Assembly: GCA_048937405.1 (NCBI GenBank)
Contig: JBHLNF010000022.1
Span: forward strand, 1 to 35,380
Length of the DNA stretch: 35,380 bases
From: Promethearchaeota archaeon
Lineage (GTDB): Archaea > Asgardarchaeota > Lokiarchaeia > Sigyniarchaeales > SOKP01
Direction: 5' to 3'
Shown here: positions 4,869 to 18,057 of the stretch, piece by piece
Numbering within the stretch: the stretch's first letter is position 1
How the letters are laid out: the number at the start of each line of letters is the position of its first letter
The notes under the pieces: model-generated
Seen by the model: the letters and a program-made list of their open reading frames with translations, nothing else
Database searches by the model: none
What the model was told of the DNA's origin: nothing
Made by a program: the position numbers and the translations under genes

Positions 4869-5162
4869 TTATATATTATTTAATTTTTCTCCACAGTGAT
4901 AGCAAAATTTCGCAATTATTTTTGCAATTTTTCCTTCACATTTAGGACAAGTCTTTTCATTTGAATTTTTTAAATTCTGGAAGAGTGAATTTTGTTGAGA
5001 TTTTTTTTCATAGTTAATTTTATTTTGATAACTTTGTCTAAATGAAAAGGGTAAAAAGCAGATTATGGGGATAAAAAAAAGGAAATCAATCATTAAATAC
5101 AAAATTAGAAAAAAGATTGATAGACTTAGAAAAACAAGGTTTAGTACTAAAGCTCGCTTCAT
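4869..5162 (-). CDS. Membrane-anchored Zn-ribbon protein
   Basis: N-terminal hydrophobic segments; C-terminal CPKC...FCYHCG. Confidence 0.75.
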   Translation of the reverse strand: MKRALVLNLVFLSLSIFFLILYLMIDFLFFIPIICFLPFSFRQSYQNKINYEKKSQQNSLFQNLKNSNEKTCPKCEGKIAKIIAKFCYHCGEKLNNI

Positions 5163-5209
5163 TTTTATCTCAATTCAATTTAAAATTACAACTATTTGGT
5201 TCAATTCTT

Positions 5210-5821
5210 TTATTCTTCTAATCTTTCTTTCCAAGAATCTTTTCTGGGTAATATATCTGTTTTGTTTTGTTCTTTTTGAGATTGAGTATTTAAAGAAAAT
5301 CGGAATGGTTTTTCTGAACTTTGAGTAGTTGATATCAATCCAATTAATTCTCTTAAATTATTTTGTGATGTCGTTCCTTTTCCTGTAACTTTTTTGTATA
5401 TTCTCTTTACAGCAAATATCCCTAAAGAAAATGTAATTGAGAAAATAATATAAATAGCTACCCAACCATTACCAAAAATAAGAAAGGGAAAAGGTAATAT
5501 ACCAGAAGCATAATCAGAATATATAATACTCAAAACTATAAAAATACCTATAAAAATTATACATCTGATACACATAGGTATAATTTGTTTCTTCATTACC
5601 TGTTTCATAAATATTATTGATTCTTGTTGGGTTTTTAGCATTAATTGATAATCCCCTAAAAGTTGAGCGTTTCTCATACGTTCTTGAATGTTTAATGCCT
5701 TCTTCCTCATTTCACTTATAAATTTATTTCTTAATCCTAAAATGTAATTAAGAATCATGCCAAAAATGATCATACCAATAGTTATAAACAGAATTTGAAT
5801 TACAACAGCTGTAGTTGACAT
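5210..5821 (-). CDS. EMC3/TMCO1 (DUF106, Oxa1-superfamily) membrane insertase-like protein
   Basis: TM1, then a cytosolic coiled coil (EMRKKALNIQERMRNAQLLGD...QQE..MKQVMK..PM), TM2, and TM3 with GWVAIYI. Confidence 0.7.
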   Translation of the reverse strand: MSTTAVVIQILFITIGMIIFGMILNYILGLRNKFISEMRKKALNIQERMRNAQLLGDYQLMLKTQQESIIFMKQVMKKQIIPMCIRCIIFIGIFIVLSIIYSDYASGILPFPFLIFGNGWVAIYIIFSITFSLGIFAVKRIYKKVTGKGTTSQNNLRELIGLISTTQSSEKPFRFSLNTQSQKEQNKTDILPRKDSWKERLEE

Positions 5822-5936
5822 TATGCTATCACTATATTAGGAAAAATATATTTAAAATTAAATTTTATGAATTGTATACTATTCATAGGTATAGGATTAT
5901 AAGATATAAAAATACAGAGATTAGAACCCTCTTTTT

Positions 5937-6968
5937 CTATCTTAAACATCCATCTATATATCCTCTAATATATTTTGCATAAAGAGTTTTCCAACGAGTT
6001 GGTATTGATGATGCTATTGCACATCCTAGACGGCATTTATTGCAGAAATGATAATTATCATGCATCTTCATTATGTCTTTGACCTCTAAAGAATTATAGA
6101 TTGTTGATACAGGATATTCTAAAGCATTGAATCTTTTAATAGGATGTATTTTACATGGATAACTAATAAATCCATCATGACTTATAAATAAATAGGCTTC
6201 AGCTACATGGCAACGCAATGTTTTTTGATGATAATACGGATATCCACCAAACCCTTTCTGAGTTACCTCAATGCTAATAGGATCTGTCAGAATATTACGA
6301 TATTTTTTTTTTAAAATTCGAATTTGGTTTGCCCATTCAGAAATATCAGGCATTATTTCTTTAATATTATTGATTTGGTAACTCTTATTCGAGAAATCTC
6401 GGATTATATCTTCACATGGATATATCTCAAGTGAAGAACCCAATTTTTCAGCTAATTGGCAAATATCCTCTAATAGATGGATATTATTTTTCATAACAAC
6501 AGTACTAATGATGGTTTTGATATCGTATTTATTTGCTAAATGGATAGATTCGATTACTTTATCAAAAGCTTTTATACCTCGCATTTTATTGTGCAATTCT
6601 GCAGTAGGGTAATCTAAGGAGATTAAAATATAATCTAATCCTTCGATTTTATGCTCTTTAAACAATTTAGGTAATAAGTATCCATTTGTTGCAATTCCAT
6701 TCAATAGCCCATGTTTTACTCCCGTATATCTGATTAATTCAGGAAGATCATTTCTTAAGGTTGGTTCACCACCAGTAAAAGAGAGTGCAAGTATACCTAA
6801 ATTCACAATCTCATCAATTAGATACTTTATTTGTGTGGTGTTCAAATCTGTTCCTATTATTGTTTCAGGTAAAGAATGAATCGAACAGAAAGAACATTTA
6901 CCATTACAGCGTAATGTCAATTCAATCTGAGCAGAATATGGAATTTTATGTTCTGTAAAATTGTTCAA
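5937..6968 (-). CDS. Radical SAM protein with C-terminal Cys-rich (SPASM/twitch-like) domain
   Basis: CNGKCSFC (CxxxCxxC), FTGGEP, TNG, ISLD; C-terminal C..YPC..CNKCRLGC. Start uncertain; the frame is open up to 7022. Confidence 0.9.
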   Translation of the reverse strand: MNNFTEHKIPYSAQIELTLRCNGKCSFCSIHSLPETIIGTDLNTTQIKYLIDEIVNLGILALSFTGGEPTLRNDLPELIRYTGVKHGLLNGIATNGYLLPKLFKEHKIEGLDYILISLDYPTAELHNKMRGIKAFDKVIESIHLANKYDIKTIISTVVMKNNIHLLEDICQLAEKLGSSLEIYPCEDIIRDFSNKSYQINNIKEIMPDISEWANQIRILKKKYRNILTDPISIEVTQKGFGGYPYYHQKTLRCHVAEAYLFISHDGFISYPCKIHPIKRFNALEYPVSTIYNSLEVKDIMKMHDNYHFCNKCRLGCAIASSIPTRWKTLYAKYIRGYIDGCLR

Positions 6969-7269
6969 AATGAAGTTTTTAATATACTGGATATATTTTT
7001 TTGTTCTTCTTTTAGGAATTTTCTATTACACCAAAAATGCCATATTAAGTATCTAATTAAGATTTTAAATTATAATATAGTTAAAAATCTAACTAAGAAG
7101 AATAATAAACTGATTCTTATTAAAAAGCTTTTTTTTAAGAAAGTAAAAAAAAGAAATATAGCAGTATAATTAGTGACTTGCTGAGTTAAAAGTAATAAAA
7201 TAGGTAAATTTCATAATTAGAAGCCTAAATCCATAGAAGCGCATCAATATAATATCTTAAATTTAAGAC

Positions 7270-7284
7270 TTTTTTCTTTATAAA
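7270..7284 (+). promoter_or_regulatory. T6C-TATA motif copy (TTTTTTCTTTATAAA) upstream of the 7335 ORF
   Basis: TATA-like TTTATAAA preceded by TTTTTTC; same pattern at 9691-9709(-), 11454-11482, 14487-14501 and 18030-18057. Confidence 0.45.
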
Positions 7285-7334
7285 GAAGTGAAGCAAATTG
7301 TATTTGAAGATGCAATAAAAATTATTAAATATAG

Positions 7335-7688
7335 TTGAAGATAATGTCAAAGAGGGATTATTACCACTATCAAGAAAAAAAAACTTCGACAACGATAATA
7401 TTAATATTTGGATTAGTAGTTTTCATTTTTCTGTTTTTTCCATTTTTTGGTGGAGAATTAAAATATCATCTAGGAGCAATGTTTACAAAAATAATTGATA
7501 TTATAGGTACAATTAGCCTTACTATTGGTAGTGTTTTCTTAATTATTGGGGTTATTGGAATTTTCGCACAAAGTGGCAAATGGATAAGAAATATAATTGT
7601 AGGAATAGCTTTGTTATGGGTTGGTTGTTGGTGTTCTGGAAATATAATAAATATATTTGGGATTTTTACTATTAAAGGTCCTAATTAA
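7335..7688 (+). CDS. Small membrane protein with about 3 TM helices
   Basis: 117 aa, strongly hydrophobic with Gly-rich helices; the start may be the ATG at 7344. Confidence 0.7.
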   Translation: MKIMSKRDYYHYQEKKTSTTIILIFGLVVFIFLFFPFFGGELKYHLGAMFTKIIDIIGTISLTIGSVFLIIGVIGIFAQSGKWIRNIIVGIALLWVGCWCSGNIINIFGIFTIKGPN

Positions 7689-7878
7689 AACTAAAGATTT
7701 ATCTTATATTTATAGAATTCAAAATAATTTAATTCTACATGGAAACTGAAGACTATTAAAAGAGCTGTTATAAGAGAATAAATTGAATTACTATATATTT
7801 CAATATCTAAGATTAAAAAAAAATAAAAATATTAATTCACTTTCTTATCACTTATTTAGAATTGAAAATAGTATCAGC

Positions 7879-8592
7879 CTATATTATTTTTAATCCACAA
7901 CTTTCTAATTTATATTGAAAATCCCAATGATATTTATTAAATGATATTTCCATCTTTTTTTTATTGCTATTGAATATATTATGTAAACTTATATCTATTT
8001 TCTCAATTCTATCATATAGACTATACAAAAAAGGACGAATTCTATCAGATTTGGGACTATATGTAACTTCATGTATTAGAATTAACTGGATATCCTCCCG
8101 TTTACAAAATAAAATGAAGGGAAGCAATTGTTTATCATAAAACGTATTGAGTAAGTTGTATACATCAGTATTATGTTGTAAAGAATATCTTAAGTGATGA
8201 GAAATATTGTCAACAACGATATATCTCAATGAAGGAGGAAGTACCGTGGAAGGTTTCATAATAGTATGAATAATCTTTTTTTGTTCCTCTAAGGAAAGAA
8301 TCAATTTATTTCCAGGACTTAAATAGATATTATTCTTAATATAATCTAATTTTTCAGGAGTATTAGTAAAAAGCTGTGATAATCTCTTCTTTGGAAATAT
8401 TTCACTTGCTTGAATCCATATACAAGATTCGATATTATTTTGACAATAAGTCAAAAGATTTCCCACTAAATAAAGACTTAAAGTTGTTTTACCAGTTCCA
8501 GATTTTCCTGAAATTGAAATTATATTATTATACGATATGAGTTTTTTTATTTTAGTAATAAAATCAATATCTTGAACTATTTCACTCTTCAT
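7879..8592 (-). CDS. RecA/RadA-superfamily ATPase (RadB/Rad51-paralog-like, no N-terminal HhH domain)
   Basis: Walker A GKSGTGKT; WIQASEIFPKKRL resembles RadA YIDTExxFxxxR; Walker B YIVVDNIS; LILIHEV. Confidence 0.8.
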   Translation of the reverse strand: MKSEIVQDIDFITKIKKLISYNNIISISGKSGTGKTTLSLYLVGNLLTYCQNNIESCIWIQASEIFPKKRLSQLFTNTPEKLDYIKNNIYLSPGNKLILSLEEQKKIIHTIMKPSTVLPPSLRYIVVDNISHHLRYSLQHNTDVYNLLNTFYDKQLLPFILFCKREDIQLILIHEVTYSPKSDRIRPFLYSLYDRIEKIDISLHNIFNSNKKKMEISFNKYHWDFQYKLESCGLKII

Positions 8593-8923
8593 CTAATAGC
8601 TCTAAAACTTCATTTTTTATCTTTTCTATATAGTCTTTTTTATCCTGATTATTATATTTTGGTATGTTGAGATCTTGATCATTGTGACTATTGAGTAATT
8701 GCTGAACCATCATTAAAGTAATAAGATCATTAATTCTACTATCTTGTTGTGAATGGTTTCCAGTAAGAAATCCTAATACTCCTCTTGATGAGCTTAAAGA
8801 TCGAGATCTAAATAAAAGATATACTCCTATAAAAAGTACAATACAAATAATTGCATATACCGGATTTTGTTGAAAAAAAATAAAAAATCCAATTATCAAA
8901 ATAATATAACATAATCCTTTCAT
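8582..8923 (-). CDS. Small membrane protein (2 TM plus cytosolic helical tail)
   Basis: Hydrophobic N-terminus; overlaps the RadA-like start and lies 5 nt from the peptidase, forming an operon. Confidence 0.7.
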   Translation of the reverse strand: MKGLCYIILIIGFFIFFQQNPVYAIICIVLFIGVYLLFRSRSLSSSRGVLGFLTGNHSQQDSRINDLITLMMVQQLLNSHNDQDLNIPKYNNQDKKDYIEKIKNEVLELLDEE

Positions 8924-8928
8924 TGATT

Positions 8929-9669
8929 TTATAACCTCTTTATTGGTTTTTGTGGTTTATAATGCTTATGGTTTAATGGCCGCATCTTTACTTTAGAGGG
9001 ATTACAATAATTTCGCGTACTTAAGTGTGTAATTAACCTTTTTGATGCAATTAGACTATACTTTAGAATAAGGTAAATCCCTGCAATTGTAAGATAATAA
9101 AACACATCAAGAATGAATTTTAAATGTGTAAGGATTAGAATAACCCATAAAATACATATTGATATTGAAACAAGAAGAACTTGATAGAATGAATGGCTAG
9201 GATTCTCTCTAAAAGCAGAAGTAATATATTGTAAATCTCCTGCTGATGGTGCAGCAGTCGTAAACAAAGATATAATGATAAATATTGCAATAATTCTAAA
9301 AATTATATGAATCAATGTATTAAGAACGACTCCATATAAGAAAAAAAAAATAAACCATGTACTAAAGACCAAAGGAGCTAGCCCAGTCAATAAAGCTTGC
9401 ATAAAAGTAGGAGTTCTACTTGGTTTCACATTACCATGTGGTTGTTCGAATCCAAATCTTTCATTGCGCCATTTAATTTTAATTTGTTCAGGTTTTATCC
9501 CCACCAAAAGACACATAACATAATGACTCATTTCATGAAAACAAACTCCAATAAAAAATAATCTAGATGTAATAGATCTGAGAAGTCCTGCCTTATTACT
9601 TGATAAGAAATAAGATAACATTAGAGATATGAATAAAACACCAAGAAATACAAATGGTTCTTCAATCAT
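8929..9669 (-). CDS. Membrane zinc metalloprotease, M50/site-2-protease-like
   Basis: HEMSH (HExxH, 9523-9537) inside a TM region; LAP and APSAGD motifs; about 6 TM helices. Confidence 0.75.
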   Translation of the reverse strand: MIEEPFVFLGVLFISLMLSYFLSSNKAGLLRSITSRLFFIGVCFHEMSHYVMCLLVGIKPEQIKIKWRNERFGFEQPHGNVKPSRTPTFMQALLTGLAPLVFSTWFIFFFLYGVVLNTLIHIIFRIIAIFIIISLFTTAAPSAGDLQYITSAFRENPSHSFYQVLLVSISICILWVILILTHLKFILDVFYYLTIAGIYLILKYSLIASKRLITHLSTRNYCNPSKVKMRPLNHKHYKPQKPIKRL

Positions 9670-9690
9670 TAAACATAATTATTATCTTTT

Positions 9691-9709
9691 AATTTAAAGG
9701 AAAAAAAAA
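9691..9709 (-). promoter_or_regulatory. T-tract-CC-TTTAAATT promoter motif for the peptidase/membrane/RadA-like operon
   Basis: Minus strand reads TTTTTTTTTCCTTTAAATT, ending about 22 nt before the ATG at 9669 (leaderless spacing). Confidence 0.55.
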
Positions 9710-9967
9710 TAGTGATAGAAAATCCTTTTACTTTAAAAATATCTATAAAATAATTCTATTATATTAGATTTTTGATTCTATATTTTGGAACAAAAATCGA
9801 TGTCGATAGCTGTATTCGATAAGGTAATGTAGTAATAAGTTATTGGTTTTATTGTTCTATTTCTATAATAGAATTTGAGTCCTGAGATTTTAAATTATTT
9901 TGCTGGATGTATTAAAGCTCAACATCGTTTTTAGGGATGCTTGGACAAAAGTGTCGATCACTATAAT

Positions 9968-9983
9968 GAAAAAAGTATATAAA
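9968..9983 (+). promoter_or_regulatory. Canonical BRE-TATA candidate upstream of the TFB paralog
   Basis: Purine-rich GAAAAAAG immediately followed by TATATAAA. Confidence 0.45.
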
Positions 9984-10106
9984 ATTTGAAAAACTCACAT
10001 TTGAATTTCATCGCTAGAGTGCTTCTCCTCATAATCTAGTAATTTGAAGAAAAGGTTTAAAAGCGAAACTCCTACCTTATATTTTTTAGGTTAATTAAAA
10101 AGAATA

Positions 10107-11360
10107 GTGATCAGAACATTGGCAACTTATAAATCTTTTAATGAAAATAGTTTATCTTCAACAGATTCCACTTTAAAGTGTGATATTTGTGGTTCTCATA
10201 ATATTATTGAGACAAGAGAGGGCTATGTATGCCATGATTGTGGGATTGAATTGAAAATTCAAAAACTACAATATGATAAACCGTATAATGAAGACTTAAT
10301 CCAATATGCAAAGGGTTTAGGTCGAACTCAGATAGGTACAAGACGAGAAAGGGTATCTTCCCCCCGTTCTATCAGATTACAAAGGTTGAATAAATATAAC
10401 TCAATAGTCACATCAAAGAAAAGTATACTTGAATCAGCTCGATCTGAGATCAATAGATTATTTGGTGCTCTAAATTTATCAGAATACATTGACATTAAGG
10501 AAATGGTTCTTGAGAAGTTTAAGAGAGTACATTCTGAAATAAGAACAGGATCAAAATATAGAAACATAGAAAAATTAGTTTCAATATTAATATATATTTG
10601 CCTTAAGCTTAGAAATGTCTCTATTAATCTAAATAAGTTAATTGATTCTGCGAAAATAACAAGAAAGGAATTTAATGACTTTATCTTACAATTAAGAAGA
10701 TATTTACCTGAATATGATGGACGTAATAGACAATCATATATCCTTCAAAGAATTTCTGAAGTCATGCAATGTTTTGATTTAGGAATGCCTTTATATTTTC
10801 TTTCAAAGAAAATACTCTATCGACTCTGGCAGGTTATTAAAAACACAACTGATGATGTCATCGCAGGATTAGTAAGTTCTATCGCTGTATTATGTACTTG
10901 CAAAGAAAAGGTTAGTATTAGTTCGATATGCAATCGTTTGGGTATCAGGATGAGTACAATCCAAGCACAAGTGAAGAAAAATCTCTTCGATCGGTTTAAA
11001 GTTAAAGGATTTACAACCTTAGTGAAATCATCTAAAGTATTGATTATCATTATGGAAAAACTGGATATACTTAAACCTCAAGAGTCGGAATTAGAAGAAA
11101 ATCAGAAATGTACTCCTTCAGAGGGGAATGTAGAGTTAGTTCTGGGAAATGCTAAGGAAATTTTTAATGTTCATAATAAGAAAGATTATTATTATTTTGC
11201 CATAAGAGAAAATAATACAGTTCCTCTGGGTATTTCAATAAAAATTAATAAGAGCCCTTTAAGTTATATAGATCAGAAACAAACAGAGATTTATCATAAA
11301 CCTTTAATGGAGTTTATAATTCATCAATATTACAGAGAAAAAGATCCTCCAAGTTTCTAA
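10107..11360 (+). CDS. Divergent TFB/TFIIB-family transcription initiation factor paralog with C-terminal extension
   Basis: N-terminal Zn ribbon CDICGS..IIETREGYVCHDCG; TQIG..RE..RLQRLN linker; two cyclin-like helical repeats; HTH-like ISSICNRLGIRMSTIQ. Confidence 0.8.
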   Translation: MIRTLATYKSFNENSLSSTDSTLKCDICGSHNIIETREGYVCHDCGIELKIQKLQYDKPYNEDLIQYAKGLGRTQIGTRRERVSSPRSIRLQRLNKYNSIVTSKKSILESARSEINRLFGALNLSEYIDIKEMVLEKFKRVHSEIRTGSKYRNIEKLVSILIYICLKLRNVSINLNKLIDSAKITRKEFNDFILQLRRYLPEYDGRNRQSYILQRISEVMQCFDLGMPLYFLSKKILYRLWQVIKNTTDDVIAGLVSSIAVLCTCKEKVSISSICNRLGIRMSTIQAQVKKNLFDRFKVKGFTTLVKSSKVLIIIMEKLDILKPQESELEENQKCTPSEGNVELVLGNAKEIFNVHNKKDYYYFAIRENNTVPLGISIKINKSPLSYIDQKQTEIYHKPLMEFIIHQYYREKDPPSF

Positions 11361-11453
11361 TCTTTACTTGAAATATAATTTTTAGTTTTCAATTTTTATT
11401 TTTTTTTGTTCTTTCTCTTTTATAATTTCGTGTTGTATTTATTCCTTATTTTC

Positions 11454-11482
11454 AGATTTCAATTTTTTCTTTTAAATACTCT
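11454..11482 (+). promoter_or_regulatory. Conserved upstream motif AGATTTCAATTTTTTCTTTTAAATACTCT
   Basis: 26/29 identical to 18030-18057; contains TATA-like TTTAAATA. Confidence 0.65.
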
Positions 11483-11525
11483 TGTAATAATTGTAGATAA
11501 CACTTTTTATATTTGTGAGAAATGA

Positions 11526-14486
11526 ATGAAAGGAAAAAAAGATAAGATATTTTGTTTAATTTTACTATTAATATCTCTAAACGTGATTATTTCATTAAGT
11601 AATGAAAACCCTTCTAAGGCTAGGAAAAATTTTACTTATGGAAAAGGTTCAAGTAATACTGAGGATCTTTACATATCAATAGGAAGTAATAGTGATATTA
11701 TAGAATCTGTCTTTGACGCTAAAATCCAAGATTATGATAATAACGGCTATTATACTCAGATATATGAACCTTCTTTACAGGCTACTTACTATGGATTGTA
11801 TACTCTCAATGCTATTGGAAAACTTTACACTATTAATAAGACAACTGTAATAAACTATATTTTAACTCACTATGATTCATATTCACATCGGTTTATGGAC
11901 TCACTATCAGATAGATATCTTCACACAGACAGTTCTCGAGATTGGAATTATCCTTTTAGTAGTACATTGGAAACTACTTGTTATGCCACTCTTTCCTTGG
12001 AATTACTTGATTCTTTAAGTTTTATAGATACTCAAGATATTGTTGATTATATCTGGAGTTGTTATAATACTGATACCAGTGGATTTATTGGACAACCATA
12101 TGACTCATCACTTCCATCTTTATTTAAAATTTCTACAATGGATAACACATTCTTTGCAGTATTTACTTTAGATATGCTAATTGATGATTGGTTAATGTAC
12201 ATATCTCAAAAGAATGAGATAATCCAATTTGTTAATGATTTGCAAGTGAGTGGTAATTCATGGCAAACTGGGGGATTTTTTAATGATTATTATACAAATT
12301 TTGATTCGCTTCTACCTTTTTGGGAACCTAATTTATTAAGTTCATTTTATAGTATTAAAACACTAGAAATATTTGGAATGGAAGATATTATCAATATACC
12401 TAATTTTCATAAATTTCTCAATAACTCATACGATTCATTTCTAAACTACTTTCATATTAGTCCATTTGAAGTTTCAGAAAATCAGTGTAATATCGTTGGA
12501 ACTGCTCTAGGATTAGAGCTTTCTGATATTACAGATTTCACTGATTTTGATCGAGCAGATGTAATAAACTTTATTCTTTCAAACCGAAATTCATTTGGAT
12601 GTTGGGATCAATCTACAACAATTACTCATCATGAATTAATTGATACTTTTCAAATTATTCGTTCTTTACAAAATTCTGGAGTTATTTCCCAATTAACATT
12701 AACAGAAAAAAATCAGATTGGAAATGCTACTGACTTATTTGTTCAGGAAAATGGATATTCTCTAATTTCCGAAGATTATACCTCAATGAATCTTGTTAAC
12801 ACAATAATTCGTTCTTTTGAGTTATATGGAAGATTGGCAGATATTGATATTGAAGGTTTATATTCTAATATAAAGAATTCATACACAGAAAATTATCAGG
12901 AAGTCTTTACTAACTCCTTTATTGCATATTTAGAAAAAGTTGAAGATTTAGCAGGACTACGTTCTTCTCCAATAGAATTCTATTCTAACAAAAGTATAAT
13001 TCATTCTCATAAAACTACATATCATGCTTTAGATTCATTGAAAAGAATTTATAAATTAGACGATTTTCTAAATGATATTGATAAAGATGAATTAATCTCT
13101 GATATTGTAGCTACTCAATTTTTAAATGAATCTTATTATGAAACTTACGGAGCCTTTTCTCTATACTGGCCATATAACTCTTATTATTCATCATCGTTCA
13201 TAAATTCAAATATTCTTTTTGAACATTCATATTATGCAATTAAATGCTTAGAGTTAATTTCGTATGAATTAGGCTTAGGAAATATGTCTAGTTTAGGTGT
13301 TAATACACTTGCATTATATAATTATATCGAAAGAAATACTGTTGAGAGCCCAACGGTGCTCTATGTTGACCCTTTATATACCAACAATGTTGAAACAATT
13401 TTGGAATATACCTACTACATGATATACTTATTAAAAACTCTTAATATGTACAATAAGAATAATCAAAAAATAATAACGTACGTTGAAGCAAATTTAAACT
13501 ATAGTAATATTAAAAATATCTATTTTAGTTATAAAATTTCAGAAATACTAAATATCGATATTGAATTCGATAGACAATCTACTCAGCAACTAGTACAAGA
13601 TATTTATTCTGAACAATATAATGAATTTTACTGTACTCCAAATAAGAAAGTAAAAAGTCATGAAAATTTTTATTATATTTGTTATTTGGCTCGTAATAGT
13701 GAAATTGGAATTACAGCTACTTATTCTTCTATCATTGATTTAGGAAGTTATAACCATATTGAAGTTTCATTAGATAATATGATATTACAAGATTTTGGTA
13801 CTTATCTTACCTTTAAATTTGATTGTAATCAATTAGGTACTTATTTATTCTCAGAACAACCAGATGGAACTCATATAGCAGATATTCTAATACCATATGA
13901 TTCTTTATGTTATCCTCTTATTGATGGATATTTACGGGCTTATGAAGGGGCTCTGGTAAAAGCCGAACAATATATTTCCTTTGAAACTAACTACACACTC
14001 GAGCACGATCTTACTATTCAGGATGATGAAAAATCATTAAATATCATATTGAACGCTTCTATTTTGAGTAATGGAATATACTATCCCTTAAATTCTCCAA
14101 ATGCATTTTGTGAAATCTACTTAAATGATTCTTTTGTAAGTTTATTGATATTTTCTCATCAAAATTTTACTCACTATAATTTATTTACTTTAAATTATGA
14201 TTATATAAACGATACAAAATATGTTTTTCAAATATTTCTAGAGGATGGAATATCAAACTCTACTCAGTTTATCGAAGAAACCATATTTAATACTACTAAT
14301 CCTAGAGATCCAAAAGATTCCGATCCAGATAACCCCTCTGATGATCCTCCAAATCCAGATATTAAAGAAAAATATGAGAGAGAAATTCAAATTGCTATAC
14401 TACTTGCTATAATTTTTCTTACAACTCCAGGAATTGTTGTTTTTTCATCTCGAAAATTAAAAAAAATTCATAATTTCAAGACCTAA
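11526..14486 (+). CDS. Large secreted, membrane-anchored protein with prenyltransferase/squalene-cyclase-like alpha/alpha repeats
   Basis: N-terminal signal/TM; recurring S/T-L-x-x-T-Y/F-Y-A..L..L repeats with GF/GGF turns; beta-rich C-terminal region; Pro/Asp linker; C-terminal TM plus basic tail. Confidence 0.7.
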   Translation: MKGKKDKIFCLILLLISLNVIISLSNENPSKARKNFTYGKGSSNTEDLYISIGSNSDIIESVFDAKIQDYDNNGYYTQIYEPSLQATYYGLYTLNAIGKLYTINKTTVINYILTHYDSYSHRFMDSLSDRYLHTDSSRDWNYPFSSTLETTCYATLSLELLDSLSFIDTQDIVDYIWSCYNTDTSGFIGQPYDSSLPSLFKISTMDNTFFAVFTLDMLIDDWLMYISQKNEIIQFVNDLQVSGNSWQTGGFFNDYYTNFDSLLPFWEPNLLSSFYSIKTLEIFGMEDIINIPNFHKFLNNSYDSFLNYFHISPFEVSENQCNIVGTALGLELSDITDFTDFDRADVINFILSNRNSFGCWDQSTTITHHELIDTFQIIRSLQNSGVISQLTLTEKNQIGNATDLFVQENGYSLISEDYTSMNLVNTIIRSFELYGRLADIDIEGLYSNIKNSYTENYQEVFTNSFIAYLEKVEDLAGLRSSPIEFYSNKSIIHSHKTTYHALDSLKRIYKLDDFLNDIDKDELISDIVATQFLNESYYETYGAFSLYWPYNSYYSSSFINSNILFEHSYYAIKCLELISYELGLGNMSSLGVNTLALYNYIERNTVESPTVLYVDPLYTNNVETILEYTYYMIYLLKTLNMYNKNNQKIITYVEANLNYSNIKNIYFSYKISEILNIDIEFDRQSTQQLVQDIYSEQYNEFYCTPNKKVKSHENFYYICYLARNSEIGITATYSSIIDLGSYNHIEVSLDNMILQDFGTYLTFKFDCNQLGTYLFSEQPDGTHIADILIPYDSLCYPLIDGYLRAYEGALVKAEQYISFETNYTLEHDLTIQDDEKSLNIILNASILSNGIYYPLNSPNAFCEIYLNDSFVSLLIFSHQNFTHYNLFTLNYDYINDTKYVFQIFLEDGISNSTQFIEETIFNTTNPRDPKDSDPDNPSDDPPNPDIKEKYEREIQIAILLAIIFLTTPGIVVFSSRKLKKIHNFKT

Positions 14487-14536
14487 TTTTTTCTTTAAAT
14501 TTTTTCTTTTTATTCTTGTAAAAAATCTATCTTCTA

Positions 14537-15139
14537 ATGATATTATCTTCAGATTTAACAAAGTTTAATAATACAAATAGAGAGCAATTTCATAAATTTC
14601 TTCAGATATTTGATCAAATAATAGATATTTTAAAAGGATTTGAAGATAACTATGAAAAAAAACTAAATTTCACTAAATTGGTTAAGATTATAAATATTCC
14701 AGATATCTATACTGATAAAATAATTTCTTTAATTTTAAAAAGTCAGCAAATTTTCCATAACATATTTCTGGAATATAATTTGGAGAAAAAAAAAGAAAAT
14801 TCAATACTCTATCTAATTGCTGAAAAAAAAATACCAGATATAATCATATTTACTTCGTTTGAGATAAGTCATTATAATGATATAATTTACACATTTAAGT
14901 ACATTAATCGGGGAAAAGGATTTGATATTTCGAAGAATGGTACAGAATTTCTGTATAATCTCAAATTATTAAATTCAAAGCATCCCTTTCTATTTGAGAT
15001 AAAAGATAACGGGTTAATTTATCCTTCTCGTTTTGGTATGGAGTTAGGGGATTTGATTATATCTTATAATAAGGGAAATAAAAAGATAACCCACTTATTT
15101 ATTGAAAATCACAGAATACTGGTGAAAGATGATGAGTGA
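14537..15139 (+). CDS. Hypothetical protein (possibly winged-helix), overlapping the helicase start
   Basis: 200-aa ORF overlapping the next start by 11 nt; IYPSRFGMELG resembles a wHTH wing. Confidence 0.65.
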   Translation: MILSSDLTKFNNTNREQFHKFLQIFDQIIDILKGFEDNYEKKLNFTKLVKIINIPDIYTDKIISLILKSQQIFHNIFLEYNLEKKKENSILYLIAEKKIPDIIIFTSFEISHYNDIIYTFKYINRGKGFDISKNGTEFLYNLKLLNSKHPFLFEIKDNGLIYPSRFGMELGDLIISYNKGNKKITHLFIENHRILVKDDE

Positions 15140-17279
15140 TATAAAAGAAGATAAAAATCGTAATGAACAAGTACTAAATTATCAGGGTCTTGAAATAAGG
15201 AAATATCAGATAAAAATAGCTGAATCCTGTAAAGATAGAAATTCCTTAGTAGTATTACCTACTGGACTTGGAAAAACAATCATCGCAGTGCTTGTTACTA
15301 ATAAAATACTTCAAACCGTGCCCTCTAATAGTAAAATAATTATACTTGCTCCTACACGTCCTTTAATAAATCAACACTATGAGACATTTTTGCATTTTTT
15401 ACATATTTCTGACAATAAATTTGCAGTATTGACTGGTAAAACTCTTCCCGCTAATAGAATTAATATATTTAATAAAGGACAAATCTTATTTTTCACACCT
15501 CAAACCTTAAGAAATGATCTTGTGAATAAAAGATATACTTTGAAAGAGGTAGCATTAATCATTCTTGATGAAGCGCATCATTCTTCAGGAGATTATCCTT
15601 ATACTATGATTGCTGATGAATATGTCCTTAGTAACCAGGATGGGATTATTTTAGCACTTACAGCATCACCAGGTGCATCAAAAAAAAAGATCAATAAATT
15701 ATGCGAAAACTTACATATTCCTATTAAGAATATCCATATACGGACGAGAAGAGATGAGGACGTAAAAGATCATCTTAATAAAATAAACATTTATAAAATA
15801 GGTGTAGATTTGAATATTTTTATGGAAGATATCTATAAAATTATTACTTATATTTTAGAAGAAAGACTCCATTATCTTTCACATTTAAATTTTCTAGAAG
15901 CAAAAGGGGAGAACCTTCATGAAAAAATTATTCGCAAAGATTTAATTAAATTAAATGGAGAATTAGTAGAACTATTAAAAAGCAATGGTGATAAGACCGG
16001 AATTTATAGTGCTATATCTATTAATGCTCAAGCACTTATTCTATATCATATGCTTGAGTTGGTAGAACAACAAGGATTAGATAGTCTTTTAGATTATCTT
16101 ATTAAGTTATATAAAGACTCTAAAAAAAAAAATAGCTCTAAGGCTACACGCGTTTTAACATCAGATCATAAATTGTATAATATCTATTTAGAATTAAAAA
16201 AAAAAGCAGAATATTCCCCTGAATCTCTTATTCATCCAAAATATCCAATATTAAAAAAAATTCTCATTGAGGAATTAGACAAAAAGCCCCATTCACGCAT
16301 TCTGGTATTTACAAAACTTCGAAATTCTGTAAATAGTATTGTGAAAAAATTAGAAAAAACAATTGGTATAAAACCAGTAAGATTTGTAGGTCAAACAACA
16401 AAATCGTCAAATGATAAAGGTCTATCCCAAAAAAGGCAAATTGAAATATTAAATTTATTTAAACAAGGTTATTACAATGTTCTAGTAGCTACGAATGTGG
16501 GTGAAGAAGGATTGGATATCGCTGAATGTGATCTTGTGGTATTTTATGATGTCGTTGCTTCAGAAATCCGATATATCCAACGTAAAGGACGAACAGCTCG
16601 ACACCGTGAGGGAAAGGTGATTATTCTCTATAGTAAAAAGACACAAGATGAAATTTATCTTAGAATTGTTTTAAACAAACTTAAAAGAATGAATTCCAAC
16701 CTGAAAGAACCCAAACAATTAAATAACTCGCATGAGAAAAAGTATAGACTAAAAGATAAGGATTTAGTTGAAACATTAACCAAAGAAAATCCACAGGAGA
16801 AAAAAATAGATAACAAAAAAAATCTTCAAAATAAAATATCAAGAAACCAGCAGCAATCAAAACTCACGTCATATATGCAAAATAACACTAATAAGGAGAG
16901 TTTAATTAAACTCAGTAAATATTTCCCAATGAATTTTGGTTTAAGAAAAAAACTCCATAAAGATAATTTGAATTTTGATATTGTTGAGTCTAATCTTCAT
17001 GTTCTTATTAATAACAAAGTACTGATTCAGATTTACAAACCCACGATTATCCAAAATGTCCCATTTTTAAAAGAGGTTGAAAAATTTAAGCAAATCTCTT
17101 CATTGTTAATTATTATATTCGATTTTACGGATTATAAAGAAAAAGTTGAAGGAGAAAAGAGGATCTATAAGAGACAACTTCAAGAATTAGGATTTTCTCA
17201 TAATTTTCAAGTAATAGTAATAGATAATGAGGAGGAAATTTATTTCATAATAAAAAATATCTTAGAAGCATCAAAATAG
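15129..17279 (+). CDS. hef: Hef/FANCM-family (ERCC4-like) SF2 helicase with degenerate C-terminal nuclease-like domain
   Basis: RKYQ, LPTGLGKT, LAPTRPLINQH, TPQ, DEAHH, LTASPG, RFVGQ, GLSQKRQ, GEEGLDI, QRKGRTAR. Confidence 0.9.
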   Translation: MMSDIKEDKNRNEQVLNYQGLEIRKYQIKIAESCKDRNSLVVLPTGLGKTIIAVLVTNKILQTVPSNSKIIILAPTRPLINQHYETFLHFLHISDNKFAVLTGKTLPANRINIFNKGQILFFTPQTLRNDLVNKRYTLKEVALIILDEAHHSSGDYPYTMIADEYVLSNQDGIILALTASPGASKKKINKLCENLHIPIKNIHIRTRRDEDVKDHLNKINIYKIGVDLNIFMEDIYKIITYILEERLHYLSHLNFLEAKGENLHEKIIRKDLIKLNGELVELLKSNGDKTGIYSAISINAQALILYHMLELVEQQGLDSLLDYLIKLYKDSKKKNSSKATRVLTSDHKLYNIYLELKKKAEYSPESLIHPKYPILKKILIEELDKKPHSRILVFTKLRNSVNSIVKKLEKTIGIKPVRFVGQTTKSSNDKGLSQKRQIEILNLFKQGYYNVLVATNVGEEGLDIAECDLVVFYDVVASEIRYIQRKGRTARHREGKVIILYSKKTQDEIYLRIVLNKLKRMNSNLKEPKQLNNSHEKKYRLKDKDLVETLTKENPQEKKIDNKKNLQNKISRNQQQSKLTSYMQNNTNKESLIKLSKYFPMNFGLRKKLHKDNLNFDIVESNLHVLINNKVLIQIYKPTIIQNVPFLKEVEKFKQISSLLIIIFDFTDYKEKVEGEKRIYKRQLQELGFSHNFQVIVIDNEEEIYFIIKNILEASK

Positions 17280-17289
17280 GAATAAGGAA

Positions 17290-17832
17290 TTGAAAATTAT
17301 GAAAGATGTAAGATGGAAAAGAGATAAAACACCTTATATTGTATTTGCATGTTCAAAATGCAAGCAATTTATGTATGCAAAACAAACTCAAAAGTCAAAA
17401 AAATGTTTACGATGTGGTTTAACCCATAAGATACCGAATTTATTAAGTAGCAAAGACATCATACATGGAATGACTAACGCAGTTGAAAGAGTAAAAGAAA
17501 AACAACATGAATTAGCAATACAAGAAACAGGATCCGCTCCAGAATTTAGTTCTTTTGGTGATTTTAAAATTCAGAAACGAAAGGAGCCGATAAATAAAGA
17601 AATGATATTAATGGATAGTGAAAGTGAATACATTAGGAAATTCAATAAAATGCTAATGAATATGGAAGAAATCTATACTAAAGTTCCTTATTACGTATTC
17701 GAGATTTTTGCTGAAAATTATGCTATTCCAGAATCAGAGTTAAATTTCTTAATTCATCTATTTCAGAAAAAAGGAGTTTTGATAAAAAAAGGAATGCATT
17801 ATTTTATTAATCTGTACAAAGATCAATTCTAA
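17290..17832 (+). CDS. DUF1922-like Zn-ribbon protein with C-terminal winged-helix-like domain
   Basis: YIVFACSKCKQFMYAK...KKCLRCG; C-terminal LIHLFQKKGVLI. Confidence 0.65.
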   Translation: MKIMKDVRWKRDKTPYIVFACSKCKQFMYAKQTQKSKKCLRCGLTHKIPNLLSSKDIIHGMTNAVERVKEKQHELAIQETGSAPEFSSFGDFKIQKRKEPINKEMILMDSESEYIRKFNKMLMNMEEIYTKVPYYVFEIFAENYAIPESELNFLIHLFQKKGVLIKKGMHYFINLYKDQF

Positions 17833-18029
17833 AGATTCTTACTCTTTCATTTTGTTCCAAAATCATACAAAATGTTAATTCTTAAAATATTTTTCATTTA
17901 TAAGTAAAAAGCGAATTCTTTCAGCATTATATGTGTTTGTTCCTTAAAGGAAAAATAGTTAAAGTTGGAAGTTTTTGATTTAATGTAATCAGATTTCAGG
18001 GTATTCTTATGTTATTTTTTTCTATATAT

Positions 18030-18057
18030 AGATTTGATTTTTTTCTTTAAATACTCT
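18030..18057 (+). promoter_or_regulatory. Conserved upstream motif AGATTTGATTTTTTTCTTTAAATACTCT
   Basis: Near-identical to 11454-11482; TATA-like TTTAAATA at 18046-18053, about 27 nt before the ATG at 18081. Confidence 0.65.

Follow-up and report, generated by a model that had tools for sequence, protein, structure and literature searches.

In archaea, as in eukaryotes, the choice of genes is thought to rest largely with regulators working on a single general initiation factor, TFB or TFIIB, and clear cases of a TFB paralog reading a different core-promoter sequence are scarce to our knowledge. Halobacterium carries further TFB paralogs with gene sets of their own, and the TFB3 of the Sulfolobales is a truncated TFB without the cyclin core that serves as a co-activator. 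Here we describe a short element, T6C-TATA, in which a run of Ts and a C directly precede a TATA box, together with a divergent TFB paralog of 413 aa (the TFB-like protein) encoded among its copies, on a contig of a Promethearchaeota archaeon belonging to the Lokiarchaeia. The window, that is, the whole stretch of DNA that was analysed, is this entire contig of 35.4 kb (C14), which forms part of a 4.47-Mb assembly (G000) with 28-29% GC. We propose, with a probability of roughly 55%, that the motif serves as core promoter for the genes of a recombination and repair island conserved in one Lokiarchaeia family, and that the island's divergent TFB reads the T-tract/TATA combination.

Among described systems, the Sulfolobales TFB3/Orc1-2 regulon invites the most direct comparison (PMC5817253, PMC6061795, PMC6101591). 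In both cases a TFB-family paralog is tied to a repair or DNA-exchange gene set, and the core promoter is closely preceded by a short T-rich element that ends in C and is not palindromic; moreover, the helix-hairpin-helix (HhH) and large membrane proteins of the island loosely recall the Ced importer. The Sulfolobales element, A(N)TTTC (e.g., ATTTTC), is located at -44 to -39, just upstream of the TFB recognition element (BRE), and is bound by Orc1-2 (PMC5817253, PMC6061795). However, it stands 6 nt further upstream and leaves a normal BRE in place, whereas in the Lokiarchaeia island the T-tract-C abuts the TATA box without room for a BRE. The proteins differ as well: unlike TFB3, the paralog described here keeps both cyclin repeats, as predicted from its fold, and has a rewritten reading helix. 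In Sulfolobus acidocaldarius, the targets of TFB2 have TATA and BRE sequences similar to those of TFB1 targets, with a different spacing (bioRxiv 10.64898/2026.09.06.749720). The two situations are alike in that several TFBs are present per genome, each proposed for a subset of promoters, but in our case a quite different sequence occupies the BRE position and the reading helix of the factor is changed. The Pyrococcus woesei TBP/TFBc/BRE-TATA complexes (PDB 1D3U, 1AIS) provide the best compact structural match to the two cyclin repeats; on the other hand, the helix that reads TEVTxRxRYK there is RMSTIQxQVK here, and the Lokiarchaeia protein has ~100 extra C-terminal residues. Bacterial alternative sigma factors, such as those of the extracytoplasmic function (ECF) group, share with this locus a dedicated factor encoded beside its targets, a distinctive common box, and a promoter of another kind for the gene of the factor itself, although the proteins and the machinery are unrelated and the likeness is one of analogy only. 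With a little less than even confidence, we suggest that the box and the paralog may constitute a sigma-factor-like pair in archaea, in which the BRE-reading helix of a full-length TFB has been retuned to recognise T-tract-C, and that the cis element may share an origin with the Sulfolobales damage box.

Five sites in the window, between positions 7270 and 18057 and 19-60 nt upstream of start codons, share the core T5-9 C(C) TTTAWAW (Table 1). They had been noticed in a first-pass annotation of the window, and all five of the positions given there proved exact. Within the window, TTTTTCTTTAWAW is present four times compared with 0.29 expected, a count that was reached in none of 100 dinucleotide-preserving shuffles. 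Genome-wide, the strict pattern T{5,}C[CT]?TTTA[AT]A[AT] has 154 copies, 68 of which are intergenic according to a crude gene call based on open reading frames (ORFs; 3767 ORFs, 85% coding), and 19 of these 68 sit in three islands, on contigs C14, C21, and C7, that together span 40 kb. When copies were placed randomly among intergenic bases in 2000 runs, five or more copies in 11 kb arose four times, and the highest count in 23 kb was 7, compared with the 10 observed on C21. The clustering of the motif is real and not a product of chance. Eighteen of the 19 island copies are oriented toward gene starts, and alignment of the 19 sites leaves only T5-9, C or CC, and TTTAWAWA in common, the flanks being dissimilar. 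The strict motif is found in 0.9% of upstream regions genome-wide and a looser version in 4%. Scattered single copies are mostly weak T5 versions located before unrelated metabolic genes and are probably for the most part fortuitous.

Genes linked to the motif on C14 include an operon with a RadB/Rad57-like ATPase, the Hef helicase, a DUF1922 zinc protein, and an operon beginning with an HhH membrane protein, while those on C21 include a RadA paralog, a Hel308-like helicase, a FEN1-like nuclease, and an OB-fold protein. By their predicted products, the motif-bearing genes of the islands are recombination and repair genes. A BLAST comparison of the proteins of C14 and C21 revealed one strong common gene, encoding the 413-aa zinc-ribbon TFB-like protein (62% identity); the only other match was a weak one between aminotransferases, the C14 copy of which lies outside the motif cluster. 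The TFB-like protein has exactly two copies in the genome by tblastn, at C14:10119 and C21:60406, and each of the two large clusters contains one of them. In each of two relatives (L013 and L014), the genes found here on C14 and C21 are joined in an uninterrupted locus that surrounds one TFB-like gene and carries six oriented motifs, and the genome studied here therefore has a split, duplicated version. The genome encodes three RadA homologs. That of the island (L010 2908-4146; G000:C21:66239-67477) carries a C-terminal HhH domain in addition to the usual N-terminal one and is only 41-42% identical to the other two. Apparent in-frame stops inside those other RadA homologs were dismissed, as they were merely the normal stop codon. 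The third cluster, on C7 (L011, G000:C7:62001-82000), has four motif sites at 4967-15659 of that locus. Its neighbours include a canonical TFB (303 aa) and a different divergent TFB-like protein with an odd reading helix (343 aa, P0122), along with a TPR protein, a TrmB-like winged-helix regulator, and paralogs of three C21 island genes.

Relatives were compared by taxonomic family, with 41 genomes sampled from family f1 and 19 genomes from families f2-f4. Orthologs of the island RadA were preceded by the motif in 29 of 29 cases, 56-102 nt before the ATG (with C or CC at the junction in 26 and A in 3), and orthologs of the HhH protein in 12 of 12, at protein identities of 23-42%. The motif was also kept at most orthologs of the ~245-aa and prenyltransferase-like genes. 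The first-pass annotation had allowed that the motif might turn out to be equally common before unrelated genes; this was not borne out, given that ~1% of upstream regions carry it as opposed to every one of these RadA and HhH-protein promoters. Around the TFB-like genes of 29 genomes, 50 intergenic copies were found in 114 kb. Typically, one copy lies 22 nt before a divergent ~245-aa gene, and another follows the TFB-like gene and precedes the prenyltransferase-like gene. Sites orthologous to the box at 9709-9691 were found 22-27 nt before an ATG in many loci (L012-L015, L018-L021, L023, L028, L032, L034, L035, L037, L040, L042), and sites orthologous to long copy 1 of Table 1 follow the TFB-like gene in a second set of loci (L012-L014, L024, L026, L027, L030, L031, L034, L036, L039, L042). 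Additionally, exact T6C-TTTAWAW copies cluster beside the TFB-like genes of two further genomes (G069 and G043). Since the box is kept while its flanks cannot be aligned, it is under selection. The existence of a conserved, island-specific promoter class is well supported.

The consensus of 196 distinct sites has T at -7 to -2 (71-100%), C at -1 (57%), TTTA(A/T)A(T/A)A, and a purine at +13. There is no purine-rich BRE directly 5′ of the TATA box at motif sites, where the T-tract occupies the BRE position, in agreement with the earlier remark that this place is T-rich. The box and the ATG are exactly 22 nt apart at the 246-aa gene and many of its orthologs, so that the TATA box is centred ~26 nt upstream of the start codon. 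As ~26 nt is the usual archaeal distance from TATA box to start site, this spacing suggests leaderless mRNAs at several genes; transcripts with the 22-nt gap are probably leaderless, and the others probably have short leaders with GGAG/GGTG. The first-pass annotation had also contrasted these sites with canonical-looking promoters at the TFB paralog and gelsolin. TATA-like words peak genome-wide at -32 to -29 from start codons. The averaged flanks of TATA words yield only a faint signal (A at -3, C at -7), and TATA boxes at leaderless positions show no strong purine BRE in aggregate; the normal BRE of this genome is therefore poorly defined. Upstream regions of tRNA genes (14 by ARAGORN) were too few to define a general BRE. 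An expectation-maximization (EM) motif search seeded on TTTAAATA and run on 2526 upstream regions ended up following strand-composition bias, so that no general model of promoters could be drawn from it, and a scan for sigma-70 promoters and hairpin terminators, which are not relevant to archaea, stayed at chance level.

Judged by profile comparison and modelled fold, the 413-aa protein is a full-length but very divergent TFB homolog, in line with the local TFB paralog named in the first-pass annotation. The protein falls below the family models, with no PF00382 match and an NF001658 score of 22.6 bits against a cut-off of 384. Alignment with the canonical TFBs of the genome by hhalign gave a probability of 97.5% (E 7e-12) over residues 23-290. 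An AlphaFold2 (AF2) model from a 33-member alignment has a confident core (predicted local distance difference test, pLDDT, 75-93), and its top 30 Foldseek matches are all TFIIB, TFB, or Brf (template modelling, TM, score 0.77 for 1d3u_B and 0.73 for 1ais_B). The match to the cyclin repeats of 1D3U and 1AIS has a root-mean-square deviation of 3.4-4.0 over ~200 residues at 18-19% sequence identity. Two cyclin repeats, the kind of fold with which TFBs bind TBP and DNA, are present according to this modelled fold. Four cysteines (C25, C28, C42, and C45) are invariant in the zinc ribbon across the 33-member alignment; the ribbon has a weak Pfam Zn_Ribbon_TF match (E 0.0027) and was aligned to the TFB ribbon by hhalign. 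After the second cyclin repeat, ~100 extra residues follow. Translation had been assigned to GTG 10107 and probably starts at TTG 10119 instead, giving the MATYK... terminus seen in homologs and in an identical 413-aa database protein.

The helix-turn-helix of the paralog is rewritten. The canonical helix GVTEVTLRSRYK, which reads the BRE in the 1D3U complex, is VTEVTLRxRYK in canonical TFBs, and hhalign places GIRMSTIQxQVK of the TFB-like protein opposite it. Of the 39 f1 loci that cover the core of the rewritten helix, MSTI(Q/H)xQV, 38 retain it, down to 32% overall identity, and the remaining one has MSAIQKQV. A further stretch after the zinc ribbon, QYD.PYNEDLIQYA, is strongly conserved, while the canonical TFB of the C7 cluster has PGPEWRSF in the same segment. 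The family was detected in 31 of the 41 sampled f1 genomes and was not found at E 1e-20 in the 19 genomes of f2-f4. One f2 genome (G022) has a weak TFB-like relative ~12 kb from its RadA gene. The genome studied here has a single TBP gene (C28:264248-264910). Full-text literature searches returned no paper describing this TFB family or T-tract promoters.

The promoter of the TFB-like gene itself is of the contrasting, ordinary type, with a conserved purine-rich BRE and TATA box (Table 1) and no T-tract. A canonical-looking promoter had been ascribed to this gene earlier; its ordinary purine-rich nature stands, but the site then named, GAAAAAAG-TATATAAA at 9968-9983, is not the conserved one. 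In most of ~40 loci the region upstream of the TFB-like gene is conserved over ~90 nt despite protein identities of 32-60%. The conserved features of this region (10046-10118) include GTGATC directly before the start codon and the box AAACTCCTACC, which by its position is a candidate operator.

These features would fit together as follows. The element would be a TATA box, TTTAWAWA, joined directly at its 5′ end, the very place of the usual TFB-BRE contact, to 5-10 Ts and usually one or two Cs. An ordinary TFB would transcribe the TFB-like gene from its purine-rich promoter, with its conserved operator-like box, and the TFB-like protein would then join TBP on the T-tract/TATA promoters. The island genes would thereby be switched on, namely the RadB-like operon, Hef, the RadA paralog, the Hel308-like and FEN1-like genes, and those for the HhH and large membrane proteins. 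Two parts of this scheme are inferred: recognition of the T-tract by the paralog, and a trigger in the form of DNA damage or a state of DNA exchange. The interpretation in the first-pass annotation, an alternative BRE recognised by the local TFB paralog, is partly supported. Box, factor with rewritten helix, and gene set are each defined in this case and are all conserved across an Asgard family, such that promoter choice by a basal factor is directly testable here with a handful of recombinant proteins. The case also opens a first way into the possible regulation of recombination and repair in Asgard archaea, and T6C-TATA is a simple signature with which to annotate the regulon in new genomes.

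Several observations weigh against reading of the T-tract by the island's TFB. The C7 cluster has no member of the 413-aa family, and the TFBs located there are a canonical one and the other divergent protein. The junction base is C in only ~57% of the collected sites, and the B-reader region of the TFB-like protein is non-canonical, so that its competence in initiation is assumed. Three f1 genomes have motif-bearing RadA promoters and no TFB-like gene was found in them (G044, 94% complete; G070, 83%; G049, 90%). In f2, RadA promoters (L077-L083) have a T-run, a 3-4-nt spacer (CGA, GGA, CCA, or CGAC), and a TATA box (e.g., ATTTTCCA-TTTAAATA), one f2 genome (G020) having the fused form; the search of f2 gave no close TFB-like gene, only weak relatives with a different helix, and the T-run may therefore predate this TFB or be independent of it. 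Furthermore, the genome has ~12 canonical TFBs with two cyclin repeats each, any of which might prefer T-rich BREs. The f2 promoters would suit a separate sequence-specific activator or repressor that binds T-tract-C, much as Orc1-2 binds A(N)TTTC in the Sulfolobales, with the TFB-like protein being just another member of the regulon. In the Sulfolobales, genes induced by UV and DNA damage, among them tfb3, ups, and ced, are under the control of the Orc1-2-bound element (PMC5817253, PMC6061795), and both the core TTTTC and the class of genes are strikingly alike in the two systems. Such a regulator, the main rival, is nevertheless unlikely in our view: on an element that abuts the TATA box it would sit where TFB makes its contact, the sequence lacks palindromic symmetry, and the TFB paralog is the one gene that always adjoins the motif pair. 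Moreover, no tested island protein matched a classical DNA-binding regulator family, although many had no family match and C7 has its TrmB-like winged-helix protein.

The T-tract might also act without a dedicated factor, as rigid or bent poly(dT), by excluding histones, or by aiding the binding or orientation of TBP, or it might be the preferred BRE of one of the ~12 canonical TFBs. Variation of the junction base (C, CC, A, or G) would be compatible with this, and among the 7-mers that precede TATA-like words directed at gene starts, T-rich ones are the most frequent genome-wide (TTTTTTT, 38 vs 13; TTTTTTC, 16 vs 5). We regard it as distinctly unlikely, since the motif clusters strongly in three islands, is rare elsewhere (0.9%), and is kept by the same genes across genera. 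An element conferring promoter strength would in addition be expected at ribosomal or highly expressed genes, not in the weak T5 form in which single copies mostly occur before unrelated metabolic genes. Very improbable is the notion that the T-runs are oligo-T terminators of upstream genes that happen to lie beside AT-rich, TATA-like words. Oligo-T is indeed enriched downstream of genes (TTTTTTTT, ~1146 scaled vs 421 upstream), and the site at 14487 begins directly after a stop codon. This is, however, the only site that also follows one; divergent regions hold the sites at 9709-9691 and 7270, and all but one of the 19 island copies are directed at gene starts. Conservation extends beyond the T-run to the C and the TATA box, and orthologous sites hold a fixed 22-nt spacing to the downstream ATG. 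Conservation in divergent intergenic regions and the leaderless TATA-ATG spacing bear out the earlier view that these are promoter elements rather than terminators.

Table 1. Promoter boxes, associated genes, and motif islands (positions refer to the window, except for islands C21 and C7, which are given on their own contigs)
Feature	Position	Strand	Description
Box T6-C-TTTATAAA	7270-7284	+	60 nt before ATG 7344 of a 117-aa membrane protein
Box T9-CC-TTTAAATT	9709-9691	-	22 nt before ATG 9669; leaderless spacing
Operon behind box 9709-9691	9669-7879	-	246 aa, 113 aa, and 237-aa RadB/Rad57-like ATPase
Promoter of TFB-like gene, GAAGAAAAGG-TTTAAAAG	10046-10063	+	Purine-rich BRE + TATA; conserved; contrasting ordinary type
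Box AAACTCCTACC (consensus AAACTCCTWCC)	10066-10076	+	Between TATA and expected start site; kept in most of ~40 loci
TFB-like gene	10119-11360	+	413 aa; predicted Zn ribbon, two cyclin repeats, rewritten BRE-reading helix, ~100-aa extra C-terminal domain
Long copy 1, T6-C-T-TTTAAATA-CTCT	11454-11482	+	43 nt before ATG 11526
Gene behind long copy 1	ATG 11526	+	986-aa prenyltransferase-like membrane protein
Two overlapping boxes, T6-C-TTTAAATT and T6-C-TTTTTATTC	14487-14515 (first box 14487-14501)	+	Before ATG 14537
Genes behind boxes 14487-14515	14537; 15129-17279; 17290-17832	+	200 aa; Hef helicase; DUF1922 zinc protein
Tandem T7-C-TATATATA, then long copy 2, T7-C-TTTAAATA-CTCT	18015-18057 (long copy 18030-18057)	+	
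Operon behind 18015-18057	18072/18081-25752	+	HhH membrane protein, 225 aa, 287 aa, large protein, 124 aa
Island C14	7.3-18.1 kb		5 copies (10.8 kb); Poisson 9e-7
Island C21	53.2-76.0 kb		10 copies (23 kb); Poisson 5e-12
Island C7	70.4-76.8 kb		4 copies; Poisson 3e-6

The two long copies in the window are, as had been reported, identical at 26 of 29 positions, the differences being two substitutions and one 1-nt gap. The AGATTT part of this long repeat shows no conservation in orthologs, which retain the T-tract, C, and TATA box. A genome search for the 28-29-nt version by mismatch counting found one further near copy, at C21:71951-71978 on the minus strand (3 mismatches), all other matches having at least 5 mismatches. 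The second box of the overlapping pair (14500-14515) shares two bases with the end of the 14487 box, and it is the one of the pair that is kept in L013 and L014. The starts of the T7-C-TATATATA box (18015-18030) and of the 18038 box are 23 nt apart, the former being upstream, and the TATA centre of the 18015-18057 region lies ~31 nt before ATG 18081. The large protein of the operon behind it had no family match. The gene content of C14 also includes gelsolin, longin-like, and EMC3-like genes, and the proteins of this contig have matches in metagenome-assembled genomes (MAGs) of Lokiarchaeia and Promethearchaeota. Among the scattered copies, a T8-CC-TTTATAA sequence lies 156 nt upstream of an O6-methylguanine-DNA methyltransferase-like gene (G000:C16:10178-10908, minus strand), and a weak copy lies 90 nt upstream of a topoisomerase IA gene (C26:14109); these two genes are possible outlying members of the regulon.

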